Assembly (NCBI GenBank): GCA_013239625.1
Contig: MU053933.1
Span: forward strand, 1,675,453-1,695,452
DNA length: 20,000 nucleotides
Source: Lama guanicoe
Taxonomy: Eukaryota
Direction of reading: 5' to 3'
Position 1 is the first letter of the stretch. Each line of letters starts with the position of its first letter. The notes below the pieces were generated by a model. That model did no database searches and was not told the DNA's origin. It saw only the letters and a program-made list of their open reading frames with translations. Shown here in pieces: positions 531 through 18,789 of this stretch. The translations under genes and the position numbers were made by a program.

Positions 531-1136
531 TGACTCTCGTGCCCTTGCTGGCGTGCCCCTGGGTTTTCTCAGCCGCCCCCACGCCGCACCGGCACTGCCC
601 GGCCACCCGGGGCATCTTTCCTGGCCCTCCCTGACCTCCTTCTCAGTAGCCAAGTCACCGGTCCAGGCAGCCCCAGGTCCTCGCGGGGCTTGGTGATGGC
701 CCACAGTCCTGCCGTCACCGTTCACTGCCTCCCACCTGTCCCGCTCCGCTGCCTGTCCGAACCTTCCATGTGCGGGGAGCGACGTCAGAGCCCCAGACGC
801 CTGGCCAGTGTCTGCTTCCTCACCTGCAGCTGCATCTCCTGTCACCCTGTGGCTGGGCCAGCCCCCCTCTTCTGCACCCTGGACTCCTGCCCCTGTGTTT
901 GCTGCCTGGGCTGCCCACTCACAGTCCCCTCTCGGTTTCACTCCTCGAGGACTGGTCAGGCCCCCATCTTCCCTGGGATGGCTTTCTCCTCCCCAGGCCT
1001 TGGTGCCCCTGCCGTCCACCCACCCAAGCGTGGGCCCCGGCTGGCAAGGCTCCTGGTTCCCAGGCATTCGTGTTGGGCCCTGTGACCCCTGTGGCACCAG
1101 GTATGTCTTTGAGTCCGTGGGCCCCTTTTGTCCTAG

Positions 1137-1219
1137 GCTCCGTCTGTGGGACTGGACCCGACCCGGGTGCGGAGCAGTCGGACGACGACGATGAGGGCAG
1201 TGCCGGCTCCGTCCTCCAG
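1137..1219 (+). CDS. RRP1: RRP1 internal coding exon (83 nt): (G)SVCGTGPDPGAEQSDDDDEGSAGSVLQ
   Basis: Acceptor ccttttgtcctag ends at 1136 and donor CAG|gtgggt starts at 1220. The acidic stretch ends in VLQ and joins in phase 0 to FDYEAV of the next exon, as in RRP1 'VLQFDYEAVANRLFEMAS'. Confidence 0.85.
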
Positions 1220-1772
1220 GTGGGTGGCCGGGCCTGTGGGCCGGGCGCTCAGCCCCTGCCCTGTGCTCCCGATGCTGGGAGCTGCTCTTGGGGCACAGTG
1301 GGGGTGGCGTCTGTCCGGCTGGGACGCGGAGGAAGGCAGGGGCGCCGGGCGGCACGTGCTGCGTGGGGGGGTTTCGGGTCCCCGCTGGTAGTCGGAGCTC
1401 AGCCGGCGGGGCCTGTAACCAGGTGAGCTGGACATGCAGGGCAGCTCCCAGTGAGTCCCGGATGTTGACTACTCGTGCGTTAGTAAGGTCTTCAGTGTCT
1501 TGGTCAAGTAGTCATTAGGTTGACCTTGCTTGTTTCTTCCTGCTTTTTTTAACGTGGGTTTTAAGTCACAGGCTCCCCGCGGCCCCGCACGTTCCCACGG
1601 GCGTTTGCTGCCTCACGTGCTGCGGACCGTCTGCATCTGTGCGGGGATGGCCTGGGGATGGCGGGGCGCGGCCTCGGCACGTGGCTTCCGTGCTCCCTCT
1701 GCCGGTTCACGTTCCGGGAGCCCCTGGGAGGTGACTCACCCTTCGCCTCCACGGCGTCTCTTTGTGAAACAG

Positions 1773-1870
1773 TTTGACTATGAGGCTGTTGCCAACAGAC
1801 TGTTTGAAATGGCTAGTCACCAGGACACCCCTCCTCCAAACCGGAAACGTCTCTACAAAGTGATCCGAAA
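1773..1870 (+). CDS. RRP1: RRP1 coding exon (98 nt): FDYEAVANRLFEMASHQDTPPPNRKRLYKVIR(K)
   Basis: Near-identical to human RRP1 FDYEAVANRLFEMASRQSTPSQNRKRLYKVIRK. Acceptor aaacag ends at 1772 and donor AA|gtgagt starts at 1871. Confidence 0.96.
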
Positions 1871-2004
1871 GTGAGTGTCCCTGGAGGGGCTGGCGTTGGG
1901 GTCGCCCCTCCCTCCCTCCCTGTGGTGGCCCCGCCCTCAGAGCTCAGGCAGGAAGGGGCTTCCTGAGAGCAGCCGAGGCCAGTGACCGCCTCCCCTTGTT
2001 TCAG

Positions 2005-2024
2005 GTTGCAGGGCCTCGCGGAAG
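2005..2024 (+). CDS. RRP1: RRP1 20-nt microexon: (K)LQGLAE(G)
   Basis: Acceptor tccccttgtttcag ends at 2004 and donor G|gtgagc starts at 2025. It bridges phase 2 to phase 1 and matches human 'KLQDLAGG'. Confidence 0.92.
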
Positions 2025-2468
2025 GTGAGCACGGGGCTGCCCGGCTGAGACAGGACCTCGTCCTCTTGGGAGTGGATGGGGCCACACATTCACCCCCAGA
2101 GCGTGGACAAGAGTTTGCAGAGGCTGGTGGTGTTTGTTTGGCGAGAGGCGGGTGGCTGGCCTCGGGACTCTTGTCCTGATGAAGCTCAGTGGTTTTGGGG
2201 GCTGAGTGTGCGTTTGAGGCTCACGTGACAGGGTGGGGCCCGGCCCGAGAGCCTGCATTTCCGGTGAGTGCCTACAATGTGGCGGTGCTGGGCTGCGGAG
2301 CAGCAGACAGCCCCAGTTTGCGGTGTGTGGCTGGTGGACCTGGGAAAGCGTATTCTGAAAGGCAGTTGCTCATGACATGGTGCTTATGGGGCCATGGAGA
2401 CAGTGAACATGCGAGCTGTGAGCGTCCCGGCTGCCTTTGGCCTCCTGATCACCTGCCTTGGTCCTCAG

Positions 2469-2573
2469 GCTTCTTCCCTGAAGATGACATCCCAGAGAAA
2501 GCCTACAGGTGTGTGCGGGGAGGGCGGCGCGTGAAGATGAAGAGGCGCCTGTCCCAGCTGCAGAGCAGGATGG
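2469..2573 (+). CDS. RRP1: RRP1 coding exon (105 nt): (G)FFPEDDIPEKAYRCVRGGRRVKMKRRLSQLQSRM(G)
   Basis: Acceptor gtcctcag ends at 2468 and donor G|gtaagc starts at 2574. Matches human 'GIFPEDEIPEKACRRLLEGRR'; phase 1-1. Confidence 0.93.
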
Positions 2574-3661
2574 GTAAGCCTGGCAGTGTTGGCTGCGGTG
2601 AGGGGCTTCCTCACCTGCATTCTGTCCTCACGCTTGGGTCAAGTGACCGGAAGCCTCTCTCCAGATGTGACCCCCTCCTCCCCAGCCTACTGCCCTGTGC
2701 CACGCCCAGCCCTGGGCTTCTGCTGTCTGGCCAAGGGCCACTCTGTCTTCCCTGCCCTCCTTACCTGCGGTTCTGGTCTGGCCTCTTCCTGACCCTTTTC
2801 CATCTTTGATCTGTGTGTGCCTCTTCCTCCTCTGCAGCGCGCTCCAGAGAGCCCTAACCCCACTGTACTCTCCTCCTTGATTTTAGAAGCTTCTCCTCCC
2901 CCTGCCTCTTCCCTCCTCCCCCTTTCCTGCTCCACCCCCCTCCCCTCTCCTCGCCTTCCTCCACCCCAGCTTGTCCACAGGCGTGTGGCTAGCCTGTGAC
3001 CGCCTGTGCCAAAGGCCATCGTGTGCTCCTGCGCCTACTGCAGACCCCGGGGGCCGGCTGCCCGCTGCAGTGGGGGCGGGAGGAGCTTGTGGCTGGAGAG
3101 GGATGCAGACGAGGGAGAGACAGTGGCCCTACCTGTAGCCGAGACCCCTCCTGTGTCACCACATCTGCTCAAGTGGCCCCAGGCTCTGGGATCCGCCCTT
3201 TGCAGGGTTGGTCCATTCTCTGCTCTGGCCCAACCCTGTCCAGCTCATTTCACGCCAGGGCCCTTGAGCAGATGAGGACTGGCTCACACACCCACGCCAG
3301 GCAAGGGGCCGGATGCTGACAGGGCCCCGCGTTCCCGGCCGCCCCTCCGGCCCTTGTGGGCACGAGCCTGAGCCTGCCTGCGCCCCACACCGCTGCCCAC
3401 TTTGCCTTTCCCTGGCCCTGTCCTCGCCCTGGGCTTCCTAAAGGCCCCCTTTCTGGTGCCAGGAGCCCACGTGGATTTCGCACCTGCCCGCCGGCTGTGG
3501 TGCAGGGTCCCTGGGGGGCCGGCTTGGGTCCCCTCCGCAGGCCATCAGTGCTTCTGTCAGGCACTGTGTGTCTGCTGTCCCGGAGCCACCTCCCTCGTTC
3601 AGAGAACCGCGAGGTGGATGGGCCTTCCTTGAGCCTTGTTCACTTGGCCTTGCCGTTGCAG

Positions 3662-3894
3662 GGAGAGATGCGGGGGAGGCCTTGTGTCCAGACCCGAGCC
3701 CCAGACCCGCGAGGAGAAGGCGGCGGCGGAGCACAGGGGCTGACCCCACCGTGTCCCAGGAGCAGCCCGGGGGCCGGGGAGGGAGAGGGGCCCGCAAGAG
3801 GGGGCGGCGGCCGCTGGCAGGGGCCAACGCGAAGGTGGCCAGTTACCAGGAGCCAAAGGTGAAGAGGAAGCAGACCCTAGAGGGCAAAAAGTGA
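3662..3894 (+). CDS. RRP1: RRP1 terminal coding exon, basic/disordered C-terminal tail ending ...QEPKVKRKQTLEGKK*
   Basis: Acceptor ttgccgttgcag ends at 3661 and is phase-1 compatible. Motifs PSP..RRRRRR..GADP..QPGGRGGRGARKR..RPLAGANAKVASYQEP parallel the human RRP1 C-terminus. TGA is at 3892-3894. Confidence 0.88.
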
Positions 3895-4141: not shown

Positions 4142-4827
4142 GCGCTCCGAGGGTCGTGCAGACCGAGTCCTGCCTCTGGTGCGTTTGTGCGGAAGCTCTC
4201 TAGCAGTGTGAGCTGACGGGTGCCAGCGGTGTTCACGTTTAATAACCAAATCTGCACATTCCTCAAGCTCTGTAAGACGATGGCGCGTGTTACCAGTGGC
4301 GTCTGGACGAGCACTTTACACGCTCTTGTTGGGAGTCAACAGTGAACCAGTGCTTTGTGCCAGCCCCGTTGCTTGAGCGGGAGGCGCAGCTCCCTGTCCA
4401 CTTCTTGTCACTTGTGACTGAGAGGCAGAGCAGGATCTGACGTCCCGTGGGCGTGTGCCTGCCAGGCCCTGCACACCTCGCCTCAGCTCCTTTAAATTCA
4501 GTTTCAGTCCCTGGCCCGAGAATCCCAATCGAAAGGAAAGTACAAGTGGACGCAGTGGCAGGCGGGCTCCAGGTGGCCTCCGGGCAGGGCTGGGCCGCGG
4601 GGCAGGGCTATGCTGGCGACAGGTGGGCGCCGTCTCGGTCTGCTGGCCCGGCCGCACCTGCACCGAGGTGTGTGGGTGAGCCTGGGGAGGCCGGCACTCA
4701 GCCTGCTGCCAAAGCCCCGCGGCCTGCAGGCACCAGCCCTCCCCGGACAGCGCTGGCTCCTTTGAGGGTGTGGCCCTGCCCGGCTCCGGAGCAGCTGGTG
4801 TGGATGAGGGTCTGCTGGGGTCCCTTC

Positions 4828-4985
4828 ATTTGTTTTTAACAACTTGATTGAGTGCACTTTGTACACCAGTCATTCCGCCCGTTTGAAGTGTATGAGCCGG
4901 TGGTGCTTCGTGTATCCGTTGGGTTGTGTGTCCCTCACCCAGGTCCATTTTAGGACATTTTCGTTTACCCCCAAAGAAGCCCGGT
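4828..4985 (-). mobile_element. L1M (L1MB-like) 3' end fragment
   Basis: 'tttttaacaacttgattgag...tttgaagtgta...ttttaggacattttcgtttacccccaaagaagccc' matches the antisense L1MB-type 3' terminus ('ttttaacagctttattgag...tttaaagtgtac...ttttagaacattttcatcaccccaaaaagaaaccc'). Confidence 0.7.
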
Positions 4986-6710
4986 GCTCAGGGCCTCCTT
5001 TACTTTGGGGAAGAAACCCACGTGAGGCTTTCGGACCAGCAGGGACCCCCACCGTGGTTACTGATCACCAGGCTCAGTTGTTCATTCACAGGTTTCTGGA
5101 GCAGCTGGGGTCTAGAGCAAGTATCACTGTCTGATGTGACTTAAGAGCTGGTAGCAAGTGTGTTTTATTGCTTCCCAGTTGTCACCAGCTCTGCTAAAGG
5201 TTCTCTTCCTGGGAGAGTAAGCAGGAGCCCTGGAGCTGGTTAACTACCGGGGCTGGGGAGCCCCACTCCTGTGTCACGTGGACAGACTGGAGCCTGATAA
5301 CCAGAGGTGGCCAGGGGTTCCGGGCTCTCCGCCGTGGGTCGCCTGGGTTAAACCTCGTCCTCCTCAGCCGTCTTGTGGAGAAAGGTTCAGAACAACAGCC
5401 TTAAGCTCTCAAAGCGCTTAGGTCAGCCCAGTGTTCCGTGTTTGCTCATCAAACCCCTGTGGCTCCAAAGCTCCCCGTTGCAGCTGGGGCCAGTTGGAGC
5501 CGGGTAGCTACGGATGCCCTAATCAAAGCGGGAGCAGCTCTGGCCTGAGTCTAGAGGCCGACGGGGAGGGCTCTCGTTCAGGGGTGGGGGGAGGAGGGGC
5601 CGTGTGAACCAGACCTTCCTGCAGGAGAGGGGCCAGCCAGGGCAGTTTGGGACCCGTCCCTCCAGTGGTGGGATGGAGGGTGGGTCTGGGGACAGCCCCC
5701 TCAGCAGCCCCTGACTGAGACGCCTTCTGCCACTGCCTGGGGTGGATCTGACCTTTTACCTCCTGCCTTACAAACAGCCATGTGGTCACTAGGGCCTGGC
5801 ACGAGGTAGGGGGCGGGGGTGCTGACTCCAGGCCAGCCGTGTTGGGGCCTGGACTGTGGGGCAGCGGATAAAGGAGAGGCCCCTCCTGTGCTATGCTCCC
5901 AGCAGGAGGAAGGGAAGGCCAGGTGTGATCCAGCCCCAGCCGCGGCAGTGGCCCCCATCCCATCTGAGGCCTCTGGGTCCTCACCTGCCATCTCCCAGTG
6001 AGCTTCCCGGCTGACCCTGCAGTGGGGCCCCCTGTCCTGTCAGTTGGGCGGATTTACACCCCACACCGGGTTTGGCTGGAAGGAAGCGTATCAGGTGGTG
6101 CCTCATCTGTCTCCCTCCGCCAGCAGCTGTTCCTGCGAGGTTTGAGCCCCCTCCCCGGCCCGGGCCCGGGCCCAGGCCCAGACTCCGAGCGCACTGGGGC
6201 TTTACGCGGCACCATCCCTTCCTAAGCTGCGGCTTTGCTTTGAGCCGCTTTGCTTCCATCAGCCAGACGTGTGCCCTCTGACTTGGCTGTGCGCACCTGT
6301 GTCTGCAGCGCTGGGGGTTGGGGGGCGCGTGTGCAGACAGGTCTGTCCCTCTCCCTCCGTCCGTCTGTCCTGCCTGCCTACCTGTCAGTCACCTACGTCC
6401 CTGTACCTGCCCTCCCTCGTTTACCTCCTACCGTCTGTCACCCGCTGTCTTCTCTCCCCCCACCCCTCCTTCACCTCAGAGACGAGGTGACTGAGGAAGA
6501 ACCAGGGAAGTTCTGTCTGCAGAGTCACCTAGCCCCCAGGGTGTCACCCCCCAGACTGCCTTTTCCCTGACTGTCATCCCCATGATGGCATCCTCCAAGG
6601 ACTTGCCCCGTTCGCATGGCGCCCTTCAGCCTTGCCGTGGGTGAGGGGCAGGTGGAGATCCAAGGAGGGCAGCCCCACCCTCCTCTCCGGTCCTGCCCCC
6701 TGGGGTGTGG

Positions 6711-6733
6711 CCCCCCCCCCCCCCCCCCCCCCC
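6711..6733. repeat. Poly-C homopolymer (C23)
   Basis: Uninterrupted run of 23 C, read directly from the sequence. Confidence 0.95.
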
Positions 6734-8234
6734 ACCATCTGCCTCTGGGAGGCGCCCCCGGCTCTTGAGTGAGCACCTCCTGGCCCCCAGCAAGTCTGGG
6801 TGCTGTCCCAGCTGCCCCAGCTGCCCCAGTGCCGAAGCCCCGTCTTGTGCTTTCCCTCAAGTGGAGCCTTGAAGGTGCCTCCTGGGGACTGGCTCTCCCA
6901 GTTTGCACTGGTCCCTGTGCCCAAGCAGGTGAGCCAAGTCTGCGGGAGGGGGGTGCTGCATTGATACTCACCTGGCCTGGCCAGTGCAGCCCAGCAGCCC
7001 CCTCATCCTTGAGATCCAGGCTGGATACGGGTGCTGGGGCCCTCAGAGCAGCTCAGTTGTCAGGTGGCCGGTCTACAGGTGAGGCCCAGGTGGGGGTCCT
7101 TCCCAAGGAGTCGCAGGGTCCCAGGGCCCCGCCTGCAGGGTCTGCTTGGGGAGGCAGCCGTGCTCCATCCTTGTCCTGGGGCCTCCAAGCTCCACTTCCA
7201 ACTGCTGGATAAATGGGACCCCAGAAAGGACCTGTGTACCTGTCCTTAGGTGATGAGGCCCCGCCCCAGCTGAGCTGCCTCAGGGCCCTCTGGGCCGGCA
7301 CTGCTGGGCTGGGTGCCCGCGTGCTCGCGTGCCCGCGGGGAGCTGGTGACCGCACGTGCTTTGCAAACAGGCCTGGAAAAATCTGTGGGAACTCCAGCCC
7401 CAGGCCTTCGGCCTGCCCTCATAGAAGCCTCTAGATATCTCGGGTGGGGGTGAAGGATGGAGCACTTGAGGACGAGGCAAAGGGGAAGTAGGCGTGGCCT
7501 CCAGGGCCGGTCAGGGAGCCCGGGTTTGGGGGCGGGGTGCTGGGTGAGGACCCTCGTGCTCAGGCGTCTCTGCTCTTCTGCCTGCGGTGGGGGCAACCAC
7601 ATGGTGTCCGGCCAAGCCCTGGGTCCTGGTCCCTCCTCAGGAGAGTCCCTGCCTGCTCTGGGCCTCAGTGTCCTCCTCTGTACGCAGGGTGGGGCCAGCG
7701 ATCTCGGGCGGCTCCGCGGAAGTACTTGATGCAGGGATCTCGGCCTGCTCCTGAGGCAGCACCACGTGTCTGGACACCTAGGAGCGTGGGGTCCCGGGGG
7801 AAGGATGCTGGGAACCAGCCTCACCTCTGGCCACGTCCCAGGGGGCGGTTCACCCTAGTTTAGGATCTGCCAGCGAGTTGCAACAGGAGCTCCAGTCAGA
7901 GGATGGGAGGGGGGCATTGCCTGCGCCCTGCACTCCAGGAGGTTCTGTGGCCCCAGGGAAGCACCCGCCCCTGCCCACCCCGGGCCGGGCCACACGTGGG
8001 GGCCTGCACCCCTCGTGGCACCCCAGTCACCGTTTTCTTTTCTTCGTCTGACTTGGAATCTGAGCTGTGTAATTTCCAGTTATGACATTCGGTGTCTGCA
8101 GGGGCCGTGCTGCCTCGCTGGATCCCAGACCTTCGGGGTCCTGTGGGCCTCTCTACAGCCACCCCACCTTGTTTCCTGCCCCCTTCCCCTCGCTCCTTCC
8201 CTCCTGCATGTTTACTCAGACCTGCACGAGATAC

Positions 8235-8585
8235 CTGTGCTGCGTCACAGTTCACTGCAAACTTGGGGGCTGGAAGCAGAGGCTCTGTAGGTCAGGGCGT
8301 GGGTGGCAGGGCCCTGGCTCAGGGTCTCACAGGCTGAGATCAGGTGTCGCAGGGCTGCCGTCACATGTGACGCTCGGGTCCCCCTCCTGGCTCACTGCTC
8401 GTTGGCAGAATTCAGTTCTTTGCACCTAAGTTTGAGGCCATTTCCTTTGTAGCTGTCAGCGGAGTGGCTCCGAGCTCTGAGATGCTGCCTGCAGCTCCTG
8501 CCATGTGCTTGAAGCCAGCAGGAGAAATTCTCACACTTCGAATCCCTCTGACTTCTGATTAGGCCAGGCCCACCCACACTGGGAC
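8235..8585 (-). mobile_element. MaLR LTR, MLT1 family (MLT1E/F-like)
   Basis: Blocks 'gctcagggtctcacaggctgagatcaggtgtcgcagggctg', 'gttggcagaattcagttcttt' and 'cttcgaatccctctgacttc' match the reverse complement of the MLT1 LTR consensus as remembered. Confidence 0.7.
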
Positions 8586-11500
8586 AGGGGATCCCGCAGG
8601 GTGTGCACCCCCGGGGGTAGGCCTCCTGGAGACACCTGAGAACCCACCCGCCACAGGCCCTGTGTCCATTCCGGTCCCTCTCTCTCCTGAGTCTTGCCTG
8701 CAGAGCTTGACCCAGAGCTAGAAGGCTGAGGGGCTCTTTCCCTCTCCAGCCCCTGGAAAATTCCTTGCCCTGGGAGTTTTGCCAGAGAGTGAAAGGAATA
8801 GAAAACCCTGGAATGTTGGGGGGCTGAGGGTCCACTAAGCCAGAAAGGAGCCCGAGCTCTCCTGGCCCAGCTGTGCTGCAGATTTCCCGACCCGAGTTCC
8901 AGGGGATGAGGGCGGGACGGGGTAGGTGCTCCCGGTCTTCCCACCAGCCCACCTGGGCCCACGGCCCAGCTGCCCCCGCCTCACAGTCCGTGCCTCCCTG
9001 TTTATCCTCCCCCTGCCCTCCCCCTGCCCCCTGGGTCTGCCTTGCCTGAGGCCCCCAAGGCGCCCGGGCCTGGCAGGGAGCAGGGGAAGCTGGTGACGCC
9101 TCAGGACAAGTGGTGTGGGACCTGCCTGCCGCTTGGCGCCGCGGTGGCCGGCAGCCCTGTCCGCTGGCATGGGCCCACGTCACCCTGAGGGCTAGCACCG
9201 TGGGCAGGTGCACGGCGCGTCCTGCCCTCTCCATAATGCGGGGCCTCTTGGGCTGGATCCTTTCCCATCTCTGACTCGAGCCAGGCCACTGCCGGGGCTG
9301 GTGGAACAGCCCTGATCCCGGTTCTGAGTCTGAGCTCCTTGGCCCGGGCTGTGGCAGGGACGGTCCTGCTCCCTCAGCCCCTCGGTCACCCCCGCCCCGA
9401 TGTTCCTGAATCCCTGGAGTGTCAAGGGCTTCCTCGGGCACCCCATGTGCTTCATGGTGCTCGAGTGTCCTGGGCCTTGCCCTGGGGGTGTCCCTCCGGG
9501 GAAGGGGTTGGGGGCTGTCTGGTCAGTGTCCATCCTGGCAGCTGAGAGCAGAACGTCCCACTCTCACCCAAAGGCTCCGAGCCACCTGCACACGGAGAGG
9601 CTGAGCCCCGCAGCCCCCTGTCCTCGGCCACCGCCCGGAGCAGGCTCCCCACCTTCCAGGCCAGGCCCCCTCTTCTGAACCTGACTCCCCCAGCTCCCTC
9701 ACCGAGTTTATGACTCTTCTCTCTGTCCTGGCCTGTGTCACTTTTCTGGTCCCCTGGGACCGCAGCCTGCACTCAGCTAGTCTCCCAGAGTCAGGTGCCT
9801 GAGGCTGCTGCTGTGAGAAGTCCTTCACACACTCAAACTGCTGTTAAGATGTCGTCTTAACATGCAAACTCAGGTCGCCTCTCCAGGGCAAGAGGAGCTC
9901 ACTGACCCCGAGCCGCGGCCCACCAGGTCTGAGAGCTGTGAATCAGAGATGTCCTGACTCCCAGAAACTGAGATTAAGAAACGTCACAGAAAGGTCACAG
10001 GACGGTGATTCAGCCCAGCTTCTGCGATCCTCCCCGCACAGCCTCCCCCGCAGCCCAGAGCCCAGGACGGGGCGGACCCAAGGTCCGTCCCCACTCCTGA
10101 GCTTGGTGCCCCGAACAAACCCTCGCTTCGCTGCAGACTCCCGCCGGCAGAGCACGGCTCCCTGCGCGCTGGGCATGTGGCTGTGATACACTTCTGTCCA
10201 CAGCGTGGTTCCCAGGGAAACGGGCCCCCAGGTCAGGCCGGCCTGCTCTGACTTTCCCACGGCCCCGTCCCTTGGCAGATTCACCAGGAACCCCGTCCAA
10301 GCCTGTGCCTCTGTCTCCAGGCCCCCCTCCCAGGAGGAGTGGCCTCGGCTGCTGCCAGGCTGGAGGCGGCCGGGCCTTGGGCTTTTGGCATCACAGTCTG
10401 TCTGTCCTTTTGATAACCAAGTACATTCTGCAGTGATAAGAACTGAAGATGTGCTTGAATTTCAAAAGTGGGGTCATTTTGTTTTGGGGTGCTTTAACTG
10501 CGGAGCCCAGACTCAAACTGACTTGAATAGGAGAGGGGGCCACGACCTTGCCGGGGAATCCTGGAGGTGGCACTGGCCTCAGACGAGGTCACCAATGGTC
10601 AAGTCCCTTTTCCTCCTCAGCCCTGACTGGCTGGTGTCCCCTGACTGAGTGTCTGCCCCTGGGGCTCCTGCGCCCTTGATCACCTGCCCTCGGAGCGTTG
10701 CGTGTTCGCAGCCCAAGTCCTGCTGCGCCCTCTGGACGGGCTGGGCCACCCGCCTGGACCCACCCGCTGGTCAGAGGAGGATGCCACACCCTGGTGCCTG
10801 CATCACACTTCACATCCCCCCGTAGGACACGAGGGACCACAGGGTAGTGATGGAGGCGCTGGGCAGGTGACGTGCAGAACACCTGCCCCATCTCCCCTGG
10901 GCTTCCCGAGCAGGAAGCCTGTCTCTGTTTTCTTAGGGTAAGAACCCTGGACGGAGTGGAGAAATGTGGTGACATAGGGAGCGGTTGCTCTCAAGCCGCA
11001 GCGCACCGATGGCCGAGTGCGGCCGGGCTGCCCTGGCTCTCCCGACGCCCTTCGGGCCAGGCCTCGCGTGGATTTTCTGACTCGACGGCTCCCCCCTCTG
11101 CACAGGCGGCTGTGTCTGTCACTGTTTGCAGGGTGAGCACTTTGTCTTCATGGCTGGAGGCCCCTGAGAGGCCTGATGAGGTTGTATTATTTTGTTGCTG
11201 TTTTTTCTTTTGAGAGAATTCCTTTCTAGCAAGTCAGGTCAAACGCACACATTTCTCTCCAGATGACAGCAACGTCCTCACCTCCCTCAGAGCAGTGACC
11301 TCGTGGGAGTCCGGAAGGTTCTGGAAGGAGGCAGTGAACTGACGCCTCCAGCTGGACAGTGGCGTTGGGCCAGGATGGGCCCCTGTGGCTGCGTGGGCAG
11401 GAGGCGAGCTGGCTGGCGCCGGTGCCCAGGTTTCTCAGTGCCATGAAAGGCTCCTGTTTTCTGTGTGAACTTGGGCTAAAAGCACACACAGCCCAGGGTG

Positions 11501-12614
11501 GGTGTGGACCCAAAGTTTGCCTGCAGCGGGTCGGGGAGGGTCATTAATGGGGTGGCTCTGGGAAGCAGAGCCTGAGACAGGGGTTCTGGTCCAAGTGACT
11601 GACTGTGCGGCTCCCAGGAGGAGGGAGGGAGGCAGGACCGGCGGGAGGACTTGGCTGGGGATCTGCTCCCACCTGATCCCACAGGAGCCATGTTTCCATC
11701 TCTGCAAAGCTCAGCATTTTATTTCCAAACACTGGTCGGTGTTTATGTGCACTGGGCAGCAGGAGGGGCGGGTCTCCCCACACTCCAAAGGTCCCAGAGC
11801 AGAGAGAGCATGAGATGCAATGGCGCCAGAAATTCTCTTTGTGTCAAAGCCATGCCAGGAAGGAGGAGGCAGAGGTGGGACGGCTCAGCCCGCCAGCCCT
11901 GCCCACCCCGCCCTCCACCCCAGCCCCCACCCCTGTCCCACCCCACCCACCAGGTCATGCTAATTTGCGGGTCAAGCCCAGCATGGAAACCCTGACCCCC
12001 AGTGTAGCAGCAGTGTCCGTCTCCTCTTGGGGTGCTAGGTGGCTGGTGGCCGGCTCTTGGTGGCCCTCGGTGGGAGGTAGTGGAGAAGCACCTGCCAGGT
12101 GCTTCTGCGGAGAAAAGGTCAGACGTAAGCTCTCGGGGTGCTGCTGTGCAGAAGCACGTCTGTGGGCTTTGGAGAAGCTGGGGCCCAGTCCAGACCTCCC
12201 AGACCTCCCTTCCGCCCGAGGGCCGTTGAGCGATGGTGAGGGCGAGCTTCTCCTTAGAGAACAGATAGGCAAGGAAGGGAGGGTAGAATCAGGCACCGTC
12301 GGGCAGCCGCTCATGAATTAAGGGATGCAGGCAACGGGAACTGTCACGGGTGACGTCCCAGGAGAGGAGAGCCAGCCAGCCATGCCTCCTGTGGGAGACG
12401 CCCTGCTGCCTGTGAGCCTGCAGAGCCAATGCCGTTACAGAAACGCGTCCTGCAGTCTAGGGGACGCTCCACAGGACAGCCAGCCGGTTTCTCAACAGAA
12501 ACTTTGTAAGAAAAGAAGACGTTGGCGGTGGGGGTGACCTACAGAAACAGAATCAAGACGCTAACTGGTCTCCATCTGAAGACCGTGTTTGTTACCCCAG
12601 TAAGCAGACTAGGA

Positions 12615-12945
12615 AAACGCGGCCTTGGCCGGAGCATCGGGGGAAGCGTGAGGGCCTTGCTGGCTTAAGGAGCCGCTGCTGGTTTTGGGGTGTGAAGAGG
12701 ATGTTTCTAAGGGGGCGTCCAGACACCCAATTCTGAGCCCGGACGCCGCCAGACCCTGTAGCACTTGGGTGGGGGCGAGGGCTGGGTGCCCCGCGCAGCC
12801 GTGTCCCCGGCCTCCCGGCCATGCTGGGGCAGGTCGGAGGGCGCCTTCCTTGAAGGACGCGCGTGCCCGCGGGCGGGCAACGCTGGGCAGGCGGGGTTTC
12901 TCGTCCAGTTCTTTCGTCTGAGACGTTACGTACCTCCTACGAGAC
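12615..12945. promoter_or_regulatory. Small CpG-rich cluster, candidate regulatory element
   Basis: Local CpG enrichment (gacgcgcgtgcccgcgggcgggc), a GC box at 12871-12876, and nearby ETS-like GGAAGT motifs (~13061, 13141). No repeat origin recognised. Confidence 0.35.
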
Positions 12946-14043
12946 GTAAAAGAAAAGTAAAAGCAATCTTTGGAAAATGCCATTTCCATGATTTCTGTTT
13001 TATCGCCATCTCTGGGGCTTGAGAAGCGGATGTGTTTAAAAAGCCAAGCGTTTATGTGAAGGAAGTGGATGAACTGGCTGCCTTACGTTGTGAAGTTGAA
13101 ATCAGTTTGCTTTAAATTACCCTGTGCTGGTTTATACACAGGAAGTCTAAATCTAGACTCGACGGATGTGTCTTGTGTTGGGCCGGCCCCTCACTTACTT
13201 ACAAATGCACCACTCACCCGCCTGGGCCCTCCTGGGGGTGCAGGCTGAGGGGTCCCGGGGCACAGGGATTTTCGAGAAGGGGCCTGTGGGAGACTGCGCT
13301 CCCAGCAGGCGGCCCCCTCCTTCCAGACCTGACCTGGGGAGTAATGTGTGCATCTTCAGTGTCTAGTGACTTTAGCACCCCCCCCCGGCTCCGGCACCCC
13401 ACGCGCAGTGTCAGCGCTATGGTCAGGGCCTCGCTGGCCACCACTCACCCTGACCTTTTCATCGGATGCCCTCTGACTGCGTGACACCCACGTGGGGGCC
13501 AGGGGACCAGGGTGCTGAGGCACTGGCGAGGCTCTGGGCACAGATCAGCGTTTCCCCCACCCTGCCCTATTTGGCTGTCCCCTGTGTCCTCAGCTCCAGG
13601 CCTGAGGGGCAGGGGCCTCTGCAGGACCCCCAGGTTCCTCGCCAGCCAGCTTCCTGCTGGCTCTGCCCACGGGCACCGCCAGAGGGCCCGCCTCCTCCGT
13701 TTCCACCAGCATTTGCGGGCTCAGGGGTGCCAGCTGGCTGTGCCTCGTGGGTCACACAGCCACTTAGAGATGCCGGTAGATGGGCAGGTCCTTGGGGAAG
13801 CCGATGGGGGTGGGAATCAGGTGAGGGGTGGCAGGTGGGGGACAGCAAGCTGCCCTATGCCACATTCAGAGCCATCGGGGTGCGCTCAAGTCTTTAGTCC
13901 TATAAACCAGAGACAGAAAACCACGTGAAAGCAGGTGATCATGAGGGGAGCCCCCTGGGTCAGGCAGTGGCATCGTACGGCCCCCCAGGGGCCCCCATGT
14001 GCCTCTCCCAATCACACAGGTAACGACCATCCTGGCTTCCAGG

Positions 14044-14515
14044 GGTCAATGAAAATTCAATGAACCGTCAAGTTAGGAAGAATAAAGGGGATTTTCTTCA
14101 AGCCAAACTTTGGATTATAACCCGGGACAGATTCTCAGAAGCTCGGAGAGTCACTCTGCCGCTTGGAGGATCAAGGCACGGTCACACACATTTTCAAGAC
14201 AAAGGATCGGACGTCAAGATGACATACTGATATTCTACATAAAGTTTCCCAAGGGTCCAGGGTCCAGGGGAGCAGGCACAGGGCGAGCCCAGGTCATCAG
14301 GACCCCTGCAGAGCTGGGAGAGAACGCTGCTCTCCGGAGAAGGTCCCTTGCCAGCGTCAGAGGAGGGAAGACACACTGTTCTCCGCGGTCCAGCAGGCGC
14401 CCGCCTTTGAGGAGGGCTGGTTAATGTGTGGTGTGGGCGCACGCGGGGCGGAGCAGACGCAGGAGAGCCGCGCGACTTTTCTCCTCCTGCCTCGAGGTGC
14501 GCATTTCATTTCACC
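14044..14515 (-). mobile_element. Solo ERV1-like LTR
   Basis: 'gtcaatgaaaattcaa...agccaaactttggattataacccggga...gacaaaggatcggacgtcaagatgacatactgatatt' through 'atttcatttcacc' resembles laurasiatherian ERV1 LTRs in antisense, from memory. Ends are degenerate. Confidence 0.55.
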
Positions 14516-14604
14516 GTTGTCGCTGCCCGTGTGTTTAAACAGGGCCACGCCCAGGTGTGCTTCCCTGAACCCTGTCGTTTACTCTTGTCTGTTATTTTTC
14601 CGGA

Positions 14605-15052
14605 TGATTTTTATTGTGGTGAAACACACACACATTAACTTTACCATGAGTGGCGTTTAGCACCTTCACCGTGTTGTGCAATCATCTCTGTGTAGTTCCA
14701 GAACATTTCCACCACCCGAACGGAATTTGTACCCACGACCAGTCACTCTCCACCCCAGCCTCCTCCCCCGACACCCACTAATCTCTGTCTGCTGTTTTCT
14801 GGGTATTTCTTATCAATGGGCGCGCACAGTGTGTGGCCTCTTGTGTCTGGCGTCCTCCCCTCACTGAGCAGAATGTTCTCGAGGCTCGTGTGTGCCGCCC
14901 CGCGGGTCTGCGCTCCTCGCTCTTCCTGCCTGAGTCTATTCCGCTGTGTGGATGGACCGCGTTCTGTTTATCCATCATCTGCCGGTGGACATTTGAGTTG
15001 TTTCTACCTTTTGCTGCAGTGAAAGGTGCTGCTGTGAACGCGGGAGCGCAAG
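14605..15052 (-). mobile_element. L1MB-like 3' UTR fragment
   Basis: 'ttttattgtggtgaaa...gttgtgcaatcatc...ttccagaacattt...tgtttatccatcatctgccggtggacatttgagttgtttctaccttttg...tgctgctgtgaac' is a canonical antisense L1M 3' end. Confidence 0.8.
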
Positions 15053-15069
15053 TTTTTCCCCTCCAGCCT

Positions 15070-15746
15070 CACTGAGTTACAACTGACACACAGTGTGTAT
15101 GTATGTGTGCGTTCGAGGCGGACAGCCCCACGATCTCACCTGCATGCACAATGCAGAGATTGTCACAGTAGGTTCAGTGACCACCAGTCAGCTCCCATAG
15201 GGACAAAATTAGAGAAACGGGAAATAATGTCCCCTTCTGGTGAGAACTCAGGGTTTTCTCTCGGCAGCTCTCATATGTAACACGCAGTGGTGTTAATTAC
15301 ACTTCTCACGTGGGACATTCCTCCCCGTACTTCCCTGGCTTATAACTGGACGTTTGTACCTTTGGGCACCTTCATCCAATTCCCCCTCTGCCCACCCCTG
15401 CTCTGGTAACCACAAATCTGGTCTCTTTTTCTATGAATTTCTTTTTGAAGTATAATTGACCTGCAACACTGTGTTAATTCCTGTTAGACAACACAGTCGT
15501 TCCATGTTTCTCTGCATTTCAAAACGCTCACCAGGATAAGTCTAGTCATGAGGTGTCACCACGCAAAGGTGTCGCACAGTAATCGACTGTATTCCCCAGG
15601 CTGCACATTTCATCCCCGCGACTCATTTATTTTGCAGCTGGAAGTTTGTCCCTCTTAATCTCCCTCACCTAGTTCTCGCCTCCTCCCTCCTTCCCCTCTG
15701 GCAACCACCTGTTTGTTCTCTGCGGGTTTGTTCTCTGTGGGTTGTT
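15070..15746 (-). mobile_element. L1 3' UTR (L1MA9-like, laurasiatherian), part distal to the LTR insertion
   Basis: Two tandem 3'-end modules ('...ataactggacgtttgtaccttt...ctctggtaaccac' and 'ttgaagtataattgacc...gctggaagtttgtccctc...ctctggcaaccacctgtttgttctctg') resemble L1MA9-derived 3' UTRs. Confidence 0.75.
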
Positions 15747-16432
15747 TGTGGGTTCCGTCTGGCAGAAGTCCCACCGCGACGGAATGAATGACTCGAGACT
15801 CTGTGGAAAGTCAGGAGAGCGAGAGGGAGTCGGAGGCCAACCCCCCGAGCCTCTCAAACACTCTCATATTTATTGTGCGCAAAGAAAAGATCACAAACAT
15901 TTGTGTCATGGAACGCAGGAGCTTACAGAAAAGCAGGAGCGGGTAGAGATCGTAAATTCCACGAGTGCAAAGGCTTAATTCGCCCTCAGGGCAGTCACGG
16001 GGGCAGAGGAACAAGGTACATTCTTCAGATATAAGAAGCTGACTACAAAACAGACCACCAGCCCACCAGCTCCTGTCCTGGGGGGTAGGCCATCTAAACA
16101 GCAGAAAGCACGCCCGGCGTTTCAGGCTGAGGGCACGAGCTGTCGCTTTGCAACGAGCAGAGTAAACCCTGGGCTATGGAGCTAAGCTTAAAACAAGCCA
16201 TGTCCTGCGTTTGTAACAAGGGACACACAATGGCGCTTCCATTACGGAAGCAGCCCCAAGCTAGAACCTCAGCTGCGCAAGCAAGGCATCGTGTCTGCTT
16301 TTCACAGCAAGGAGACAGGAGTGCGACGCACGGACACCTGCCAGGAAAGCACGTTTGTTCTTCCTAAAGGTCGCAAGCGGCTGGGGTCCGTTACAGTGTA
16401 TCAGCCCAGCCAGGGGCCCCCACCCGGGCTCA
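15747..16432 (-). mobile_element. Solo LTR (686 bp) nested in the L1 3' UTR
   Basis: TG...CA termini, flanked by gttgtt (15741-15746) and cttgtt (16433-16438), a 6-bp target-site duplication with 1 mismatch. Minus-strand AATAAA at 15869-15874. L1 sequence resumes right after the insertion. Confidence 0.65.
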
Positions 16433-17220
16433 CTTGTTTTGCGTTTTAATTCCACATGTAAGGGAAGTCATGCAGTCTTTATCTTTCTCTGACTTACTTC
16501 CCTTAGCATGACACCCTCCAGGTCCTCCGTGTGGTCTCAAATGGCGAAACCCCATTCTTTTCATGGCTGAGGAGGATCCCACTGTGGACACAGAGGCATC
16601 GTACAGACGGGCTTGTTTCTGGGACCATCCAGCCGCTGTGAGCGGGGCATTTCGCCCATCTGCACTTGAAGCGTCGTTGGCAGGTGCCGACTTACGGCCA
16701 CTCTGTTCGTTGTTTTCAGGTGTTTTTGGTGCTTCTTTTTCAGTCCTGTCTTCTTTCGTCCTCTTTCCTTGTGCTTTGATGACTGTCTCTAGTGTTGCGT
16801 TTGGATTTCGTTCCCTTTGGTGTGTGTACCAACCGTGGATTTTTGGTTTGCGGTTGCTGTGATGTGTGTCTGTCTGTATACGCACGTATGCATGTGTGTA
16901 TACGTGGTAATTTTAAGTCGCTCGTCTCTTAATTTCAAACGCATTTGGACGACCCTGCCTTTCACTCGCCTCCCGCCGTGTCCGCTGTGTTTGGGGTCCG
17001 GTTTTACGTCTGATCATCGCGCGCCCCGTGCTGCCCAGCCTGCGGCTGACGGCCTTCCTCCTCTGTCCTTTAATTGTCCCACTCGCTTGGGGCGCGGTTC
17101 CTTTGCTGCCTTGGCTGTGCGTTCGCCTTCACGGTGAGCTTTCTCCTCTCATGATGTTCACGTTTCTAGTTGTGGCCTTTTCTTTCTCGCTCGGAGAAGT
17201 TCCTTTAACGTTGATTTTAT
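16433..17220 (-). mobile_element. L1 ORF2 C-terminus fused to ORF2 N-terminus plus inter-ORF spacer (internal deletion)
   Basis: Minus ORF 16430-16885 reads 'ADGRNAPLTAAGWSQKQ' (cf. endonuclease start 'VNGLNAPIKRHRVAEWIKKQ'). It is followed by 'SSAMKR...EKDKDCMTSLTCGI' (cf. ORF2 end 'YSAIKK...EKDKYCMISLICGI'). Confidence 0.72.
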
Positions 17221-17998
17221 TTATTCTTCCTTTAGCATTTCTTGTAAAGCTGGCTCGGGGTGCTGAGCTCTTGTAGCTTCCGCTTGTCTGCGGGATTCTG
17301 ACTTCGGCGTCAGCCCGCAGGCAGAGCCCCGCTGGGCGAAGTACGCTCGGCCGCGGGGCTTTCCTTCCAGCAGCTTAACCGCGCCGGCCCTGCCCTCGGG
17401 CCGCAGAGCTTCCGCCGAGAAGGCGGCGCGCGGCCCGCGTGCCGCCGCCGCCGCGCCGGCCTCCCCGTGTGCCGGCCTCCGCCGGCTTGCTCGCGGGGCC
17501 TCGTGCGCGGCTCTCCGGGCTGCTTCTGCGTGGGGCTCTGCGCCTCGCGGGCTGCGGCGACCGGCGCCGCCGGGGAGGCGGCTTTCAGCGGCCAGCCGGA
17601 GAGCGCGCTCCCCGCCGGCCCTCCGCCTGCCCTTCGGGGGCGCCCGCCCAGGCCCCGCCGGCCCCGAAGCCCGCCTCGTTCGTTTCATCGCGCTTCCCTT
17701 CGCCTTCCGCCCAGGCGCAGAGCCTCCGCGCCGCCCAGCGCCCTGCTTCTTCTCCCCGCCTGCTTTTCATCTCGCTCGCGGTTTTCCTCGGCGCTTTGTT
17801 GTTGTTCTTCGTGTTTTCCAGCTCTTTGCCGAAAACGTCTGACTCGGGCTGTGCGCGCGCGCCGCTGTCCCGAGGCCTCTGCCCGGCCTCGCGGTCCGGG
17901 CCTGGCGCGCCTTGCAGGGAGGCCCCGGTCTCCGCCGCGCTCAGCCCTGGGCTTTTACCTGCCTCCTTCATTTGCACCGCGCTCCTCTGCTGCTCCAT
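17221..17998 (-). pseudogene. Degenerate L1 ORF1 remnant (start to stop), extremely GC/CpG-rich
   Basis: Start MEQQRSAVQMKEAGKSP (cf. MRRQRNMFQMKEQDKTP), middle FGKELENTKNNN..ASEMKS (cf. FNKELENIKNNQ..ITEMKN), then AFSAEAL (cf. DFSAETL) and C-terminal PALQEMLK. The remnant is split across frames. Confidence 0.8.
17320..17960. promoter_or_regulatory. CpG island overlapping the L1 ORF1 remnant
   Basis: Hand count for 17401-17460: 52/60 G+C and 15 CpG. (GCC)4 at 17441-17452. Similar density across ~600 bp. Confidence 0.8.
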
Positions 17999-18177
17999 CG
18001 TGTCTCGTGTGCTGCTTTTATGTCCAGGTGCCCAGGAGCTTTGTTATTTTTCCTGACCCTGGACAAGGAGACTGTGGTGTCCTAAACCCTCCCCGGCGAG
18101 CGGCCCCCAGAACACGGTCCCCTCGGCTCTCCAGAGCCACTCTCTGCCCCCATCACCACCCACGCTTTGTGGACTCG

Positions 18178-18300
18178 CATATCAATTTATTAAAATACTG
18201 AAATATAATATTACTTACCTCACTGCTGAGTTTTTGGCCCCCCCTTAAATTTTTCACCCGAATGAGCAAGGCTCCCCCTGAGCCCCTCCCTTGGCCCCTG
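18178..18300. mobile_element. Probable hAT DNA-transposon (MER96B-like) end fragment
   Basis: 'aatattacttacctcactgctgagtttttggccccccttaaatttttcacccga' resembles the remembered MER96-type terminus 'ctgagttttttggtgcccccttaaattttgcgcccga'. Confidence 0.45.
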
Positions 18301-18789
18301 GGGGAGGGGGGACCCCAGCCACACCCTGGGGCCTAGTGGGGTGGGAGCGTCGGGAGGAGGGGACCCTGTGGTGGGTGCCTGGATGACCCGGGCGGGCGGG
18401 CAGCTGGCGAGGCCTGCGGTCCCTACCCTGTCCCCGTCCCTGTCCCCACTGGAGGAGGCTGAGGCCGGTGACTCTGGTCCTCAGATGCCTGTCTGCCCAG
18501 CCCCAGTGCTGCGCTAACAGCTTTCATTTCCTAAGAAGTAAAAACAGAACAAAGCAAAAGCCAAACAAGGGCCTGCTGGGGTAGCGAAGGAAGCGAGATG
18601 GAGCCGGCGAATGTCAGCTGCCTCCAGAGCATGTTCACCTCCTTCCTTCTCCTCCTTGAGCTCCTCTTTGAGTAGAAAGGGCCTGGAAAGTGAGCTCGGA
18701 CCCTGACTGTGAGCGTGTGAGTGTGCGCGCAGGTGTGTTAGAGTGGGGATGTGAGCGTGCAAAAAAGCCAATTCCAAACCGTTGATACA

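Follow-up and report, generated by a model that had tools for sequence, protein, structure and literature searches.

A dead L1 ORF1 in the guanaco genome has become a CpG island, probably through GC-biased gene conversion

We analyze a 20,000-nucleotide stretch of the genome of the guanaco, Lama guanicoe (contig MU053933.1 of assembly GCA_013239625.1; hereafter the window, whose own positions are used throughout). Toward its left end lie the last coding exons of RRP1, which bears out the neighbor named in the original prediction: their translations agree with the Vicugna pacos protein at 35/36, 33/33 and 75/76 residues and with the dromedary protein at 34/36, 31/32 and 49/53 residues, which identifies the host as a South American camelid. 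The next gene is presumably AGPAT3, which is not seen within the window, and the locus presumably lies near a chromosome end, both being assumed from human synteny. About 13 kb downstream of the RRP1 stop codon begins a dense CpG island, and beneath it, on the minus strand, lie the remains of an L1 retrotransposon (Table 1).

Table 1. Features of the window, with the basis on which each was placed
Feature	Positions	Strand	Basis or description
RRP1, last coding exons	1136-3894	+	protein match
L1 ORF2 start and adjoining spacer	16602-16760	-	aligned to the ORF2-start region of L003
CpG-rich shoulder, between ORF1 and the ORF2 start	16791-17199	-	position between the aligned parts, and composition
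CpG island, strict criteria	16941-18220		sole stretch in the 20,000-nt window to pass
19-nt AT-rich insertion	17208-17226		at the ORF1 end; missing from L003
Decayed L1 ORF1, start codon (17998) to near the C-terminal end	17227-17998	-	frameshift-tolerant profile alignment
GC-peak summit	17431-17720		GC 81%, 51 CpG, TpA absent

The original prediction described an island at 17221-18000 with 52/60 G+C and 15 CpG in 17401-17460, and both counts were reproduced. CpG density is high across 17401-17600 (38 CpG, observed/expected ratio [o/e] 1.13, GC 82%) and across the ORF1 stretch as a whole (105 CpG, o/e 1.07, GC 72%), against an o/e of 0.42 at 62% GC in a comparison stretch of the window (4200-14000), and TpG is scarce in 17227-17720 (o/e 0.69-0.74). 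The strict island is the union of 500-bp windows with at least 60% GC and an o/e of at least 0.85. Under a looser, Takai-Jones-type definition (at least 500 bp, GC at least 55%, o/e at least 0.65), seven stretches of this GC-rich window qualify, and the island over the L1 becomes 16881-18330. The dense island is therefore where it was predicted, but the CpG-rich zone is broader, beginning near 16800-16950, to the left of the predicted start. We take the shoulder in this added part to be a long L1 inter-ORF spacer; it is without counterpart in the L1 loci L001 and L003 introduced below.

To establish what underlies the island, we aligned the ORF1 stretch, with frameshifts allowed, to a column profile built from 270 L1 ORF1 proteins (294 domain rows). 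The alignment scores 93 bits, whereas 100 composition-matched shuffles have a mean of -18 and a maximum of 8 (z = 19), and it is colinear over profile residues 1-295. Matches from tblastn are colinear as well (aa 1-79 at 17998-17762 and aa 286-295 at 17256-17227), and a protein, P0008, matches 17427-17227 with an E-value of 1e-9 (1.6-kb subject). At the DNA level, searching with a 25-nt motif taken from the end of ORF1 yielded three metagenome loci, L001 and L003 among them, all of cetacean-type L1, and blastn to the natural L1 copy fetched by this motif gives an E-value of 6e-14. L003 encodes the L1 ORF1 domains PF02994 and PF17490, and among named proteins its nearest relatives are cetacean. 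Its alignment to 17227-17427 matches at 130/201 columns and scores 147 (which includes the motif that fetched it), against a maximum of 51 in 200 shuffles, under scoring symmetric for A/T (W) and G/C (S) bases. The core of the stretch (17466-17842) gives no alignment to L1 with free end gaps (z 0.1 and 0.6), and when anchored it outscores 300/300 shuffles whichever of three schemes is used (z 6.2-6.7).

The ORF1 stretch is thus the ORF1 of a dead L1 copy, as had been proposed, and instead of the missing L1 alignment that would have spoken against that proposal there is a colinear one. We call the copy dead because it carries frameshifts and stops and no Pfam domain, leaving no functional ORF1p. 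It shares with the L1 ORF1 family (PF02994/PF17489/PF17490) colinear homology over the length of the profile, and differs from it in being frameshifted, in having lost 121 nt (15 deletions, with one 8-nt insertion) and in being too diverged for Pfam, which returned no significant match for seven frames of the stretch. All of the ORF1 landmarks on which the original prediction relied are present on the minus strand, MEQQRSAVQMKE starting at 17998 and KELEN..EMK following in the same frame, but PALQEMLK, ending at 17221, lies in a different minus-strand frame, so the landmarks do not belong to a single open frame. The aligned ORF2 start comes after ORF1 on the same strand, as in L1. Other searches returned nothing: a PDB sequence search with two frames of the stretch found no match and Rfam none; L1 DNA was not found in viral contigs, prokaryote genomes or plasmids; a camel orthologue sought among proteins with the 137-aa N-terminal frame yielded 60 candidates, none at E ≤ 1; and the DNA upstream of the ATG showed no remnant of L002, which we take to be an L1 5' end (best E 0.2).

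The direction of change can be read from the same alignments. We polarized 321 non-degenerate sites at which a residue occurs in at least 70% of profile rows and both protein sets agree, the references here and below being paralogues (three cetacean-type L1 loci and the protein profile) rather than orthologues or a subfamily consensus. Changes from A/T to G/C (W > S) have occurred at 115 of 202 sites and the reverse (S > W) at 13 of 119 (Fisher p 2e-17), giving an apparent equilibrium GC content (GC*) of 0.84 (bootstrap 0.77-0.91). There is one W > W change among the 202 sites, as expected, and there are 15 S > S changes among the 119 (3-7% in the simulations described below), 11 of them in the core, the part hardest to align. 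Compared with L003 DNA, with the search seed excluded and a W/S-symmetric alignment, the counts are 60/109 W > S, 4/65 S > W and no W > W (p 7e-12). At sites where L001 and L003 agree (135/152), there are 35 W > S changes against 2 S > W, while the control comparison of L001 with L003 over 269 columns gives 17 against 11. Over 17227-17427, L003 lacks CpG altogether, and each of the guanaco copy's 20 is thus new by comparison. An old, broken L1 ORF1 has therefore had more than half of its A/T sites changed to G/C in situ; the departures from the L1 sequence are mostly of the predicted kind, and where a symmetric spectrum would have counted against the prediction, the one found with paralogue references is strongly one-way.

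These lines of evidence differ in what they contribute. When shuffles of the core are forced into alignment, they give about 156-159 W > S changes against 163-165 for the real sequence (two symmetric schemes), so the W > S counts of the core mostly restate its composition, and its real information is the homology. The well-aligned 3' piece of ORF1 is the cleanest evidence for one-way change. Conversion is uneven along the element: by segment it runs 7/21 (17227-17330), 11/18, 21/32, 38/50 (17561-17720), 12/34 and 26/47 (17851-17998) of A/T sites, and across 40-nt bins the heterogeneity is significant (chi-square 57.9, 18 df, p 5e-6, for 19 of 20 bins, a last bin of three sites being omitted). 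In the summit, 59/82 ancestral A/T sites have been converted and 4/54 ancestral G/C sites lost, as polarized, with an apparent GC* of 0.91 (bootstrap 0.83-0.98). The ORF2-start piece shows 47/106 A/T to G/C and 15/53 G/C to A/T changes relative to L003. Since the shift reaches this piece as well, 500 nt away, the island forms the top of a broader GC-shifted gradient.

The spectrum spans both strands and includes transitions and transversions (the latter 24% of polarized changes), independent of coding effect. Of 149 A sites on the sense strand, 60 have become G and 20 have become C; among 53 T sites, 27 have become C and 8 have become G. By neighboring context, conversion stands at 32/62 in TTT against 125/193 at A-adjacent sites (p 0.07).

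GC-biased gene conversion (gBGC), the cause originally proposed, is the best explanation of the island's origin among those we weighed, with a probability of roughly 85%; the one-way spectrum, its presence at both A and T and its transversions speak for it. Under this explanation, lasting gBGC at a recombination hotspot would have turned the A/T sites of ORF1 into G/C: in heterozygotes, new A/T to G/C variants would have been favored in the repair of meiotic heteroduplexes and fixed faster than neutral ones, while G/C to A/T variants, CpG decay among them, would have been disfavored. The CpG island would then likely be a neutral by-product.

We simulated this process starting from L003, with mutation rates that we assumed from general knowledge. 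Without conversion, GC remains at 35-37%; converting about 70% of A/T sites requires a conversion strength B of about 5-14, for ages of 0.35-0.15 substitutions per site, and a B of this size would have to be held throughout the age of the element. Since the strength needed lasts for the element's whole age, it suggests a stable hotspot of the kind that does not depend on PRDM9, rather than a single short-lived PRDM9 hotspot. The observed S > W (11%) and S > S (13%) fractions exceed those simulated at such B (< 1% and about 5%), an excess that is probably noise from the references or the alignment, or else reflects episodic activity. The observed CpG o/e (1.07-1.15) is likewise above both simulated methylation regimes (about 0.85-0.92); its upper end comes from 16791-17226, which has only 51% GC and yet 33 CpG.

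Among other origins, the one that survives best, though we consider it quite improbable, is that positive selection made a GC- and CpG-rich promoter or enhancer from the L1 relic. The stretch passes strict island criteria, and it holds three GGGCGG-type motifs and one GCGCNNGCGC-type motif. Orphan islands have also been linked to enhancer marks, according to the available text of PMC11170920. Selection would, however, have had to act through hundreds of scattered substitutions, 24% of the polarized ones being transversions, and CpG-forming contexts are not consistently preferred (13/31 vs 40/118, p 0.41). The same bias extends into the ORF2 start, and the motif counts are ordinary, the island having 3 of the window's 33 GGGCGG sites. 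A present-day function could nonetheless coexist with an origin by gBGC.

A local mutational bias, for example TDG-type repair of TpG/CpA to CpG in unmethylated islands as proposed in PMC4041421 (in the portion available), is a very improbable source of the island as a whole. In its favor, CpG-forming transitions are commoner in the ORF1 3' piece (11/19 vs 20/66, p 0.03), 12 of the 20 new CpGs in 17227-17427 derive from TG or CA, and the CpG o/e exceeds the simulated value. But the excess reverses in the ORF2-start piece (2/12 vs 20/52, p 0.19) and is absent from the core (12/21 vs 49/95, p 0.81); moreover, 40 of the 53 scored transitions fall outside TpG/CpA, and transversions make up 19 of the 60 W > S changes of the 3' piece. 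Such a bias could contribute, but it cannot account for the bulk of the change.

The composition might instead have been inherited, from a source L1 subfamily that was already GC-rich or from its 5' promoter island; L1 5' UTRs do meet island criteria and explain many LINE-containing islands (PMC12582260, in the text available). We think this hardly probable. The island sits over ORF1 and not upstream of it, and it is not a surviving L1 promoter, because the DNA upstream of the ATG (18001-18500) is CpG-poor (o/e 0.39). Nor was the source element GC-rich: the profile puts the ancestral ORF1 at about 37% GC and the family's majority residues permit 23-60%, so that the majority protein cannot exceed 60%, while the guanaco copy stands at 72%. 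The residues G/A/R/P make up 10-29% of 258 ORF1 homologue domains, vs 50% and 64% in the guanaco copy.

An assembly or sequencing artefact is less credible again, as the window is without N and the island without a tandem array, while the homology is colinear and the shoulders are graded; we know of no common error mode that makes two-strand A/T to G/C changes at more than half of sites. Finally, ADAR A-to-G hyper-editing of the L1 RNA before insertion can be set aside as having next to no probability: A > G is the commonest single sense-strand change, but editing would yield that change only, and T > C is equally frequent per site, with A > C and T > G common too.

Whether gBGC acted on methylated or unmethylated DNA bears on what kind of hotspot this was. 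Under strong conversion, the simulated CpG o/e is the same for methylated as for unmethylated DNA (about 0.89-0.90 at GC 0.84), which means that the CpG ratio is no proof of hypomethylation. Stable mammalian hotspots have been tied to hypomethylated DNA, as far as the available text of 10.1101/2023.11.17.567540 goes, and we put a stable unmethylated hotspot here at about even odds. A bolder reading, which we hold only tentatively and rate as possible rather than probable, is that a PRDM9-independent hotspot nucleated itself on an AT-rich dead L1 that had no ancestral island. Regional gBGC would have lifted CpG density past a threshold, at which germline methylation would be lost; that loss would attract more breaks, and the loop would carry the sequence to 81% GC and leave a new camelid regulatory element. 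Taken by itself, a putative promoter or enhancer role for the island seems to us rather unlikely.

The process has precedents. Orphan CpG islands generated by gBGC have already been published (Kocher et al. 2024, PMC11170920), and the guanaco locus is a genuine, clean further case of a process already known. In the available text of that study, camelids are not among the species named; the guanaco case differs in that its ancestral sequence can be read from a protein family (L1 ORF1, at about 37% GC). The "biased gene conversion" islands of Cohen, Kenigsberg and Tanay 2011, as portrayed in the accessible portions of PMC8286816 and PMC4684328, resemble ours in being CpG-rich sequence kept up by rapid gain of G/C in a GC-rich region with little selection, but they are heavily methylated and deaminate fast, whereas the guanaco island is depleted in TpG.

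Comparison with described hotspots is similarly mixed. The PRDM9-independent hotspots of placental mammals (Joseph et al., 10.1101/2023.11.17.567540; camel and alpaca are unnamed in its main text) likewise show a kb-scale GC* peak at island-like, long-stable DNA. They are given there as ancestrally hypomethylated and promoter-like, whereas the guanaco locus was AT-rich and CpG-poor, and the same available text regards GC* as unsuited to gauging recombination at a single locus. GC peaks at recombination hotspots have been described in the dog (PMC4053742, PMC4350167, in the parts available), which lacks PRDM9. Those of the Axelsson definition (PMC4053742) are, like the guanaco island, GC-rich, island-like blocks of about 1 kb tied to recombination, and they are defined by a 500-bp GC content at least 1.5 times that of the 10-kb background; the guanaco ratio is 0.772/0.581 = 1.33, a value kept down by a background that already has 58% GC. 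As for the substrate, LINEs supply 0.9% of human island bases, and those found in islands are mostly young, with 5' UTRs meeting the criteria (PMC12582260, in the text available); old ORF1 is therefore an unusual material for an island. A literature search, with most subscription papers and bioRxiv supplements outside its scope, turned up nothing on this locus and nothing on PRDM9 or hotspots in camelids.

At this one locus, the rise of a CpG island from DNA that was rich in A/T and poor in CpG can be read with unusual clarity, with no requirement for selection; because the ancestral state is readable from the protein family, there is no doubt about the direction of change. The locus also points to two traps. 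Relics of this kind evade Pfam and, with their long but spurious reading frames, have the look of GC-rich promoters, and under strong conversion a high CpG ratio alone is no proof of an unmethylated state. The value of the locus would grow if the island were shown to have created its own stable hotspot: were the self-nucleating loop true, the readable L1 ancestry would let births of CpG islands be dated and the order of cause and effect be tested.

Several minor observations concern the window and the element. A new protein-coding gene was considered and rejected, since the longest stop-free frame (299 aa) was equalled or exceeded in 103 of 500 shuffles. By their look, we take 1-480, 14600-15060, 15100-15745 and 16430-16600 to be old L1 3' relics, and 15750-16420 and 14030-14560 to be LTR-like insertions, the former interrupting an L1-like 3' relic. 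CpG o/e in the L1-3'-like stretches is 0.70, 0.75 and 0.50-0.56, with 0.32 in 16430-16600; the high values in several of them are consistent with a region-wide gain of GC. The join near 16600 may be where the same element lost a large internal part of its ORF2. Within ORF1, deletions far outnumber insertions (15, totaling 121 of 885 nt, vs one, with gap placement uncertain in the core), which is possibly a footprint of break repair.

The island also contains two AT-rich or weakly converted troughs. On either side of the 19-nt insertion stands an 8-nt direct repeat (17200-17207 and 17227-17234), and the insertion forms a local AT-rich trough. In this trough (17200-17254), the insertion is followed by 28 nt in which 0/17 A/T sites have changed relative to L003, an identity that is partly ascertained, as these positions overlap the motif that fetched L003; by the protein profile, 1/10 A/T sites in 17227-17266 are converted. 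Its plus strand resembles a branch point, pyrimidine tract and AG (17234-17235), and its minus strand contains AATAAA; the trough may be a splice or poly(A) signal under constraint, or else a recent insertion. In the second trough (17747-17826), 9/32 A/T sites are converted, and the plus strand has a T-rich run with an AG at 17820-17821, which looks acceptor-like. Just upstream of the island on the minus strand, we noted by eye a putative 312-nt exon (18219-18530): a strong pyrimidine tract with an AG lies near 18531, and near 18218 there is an almost perfect donor.
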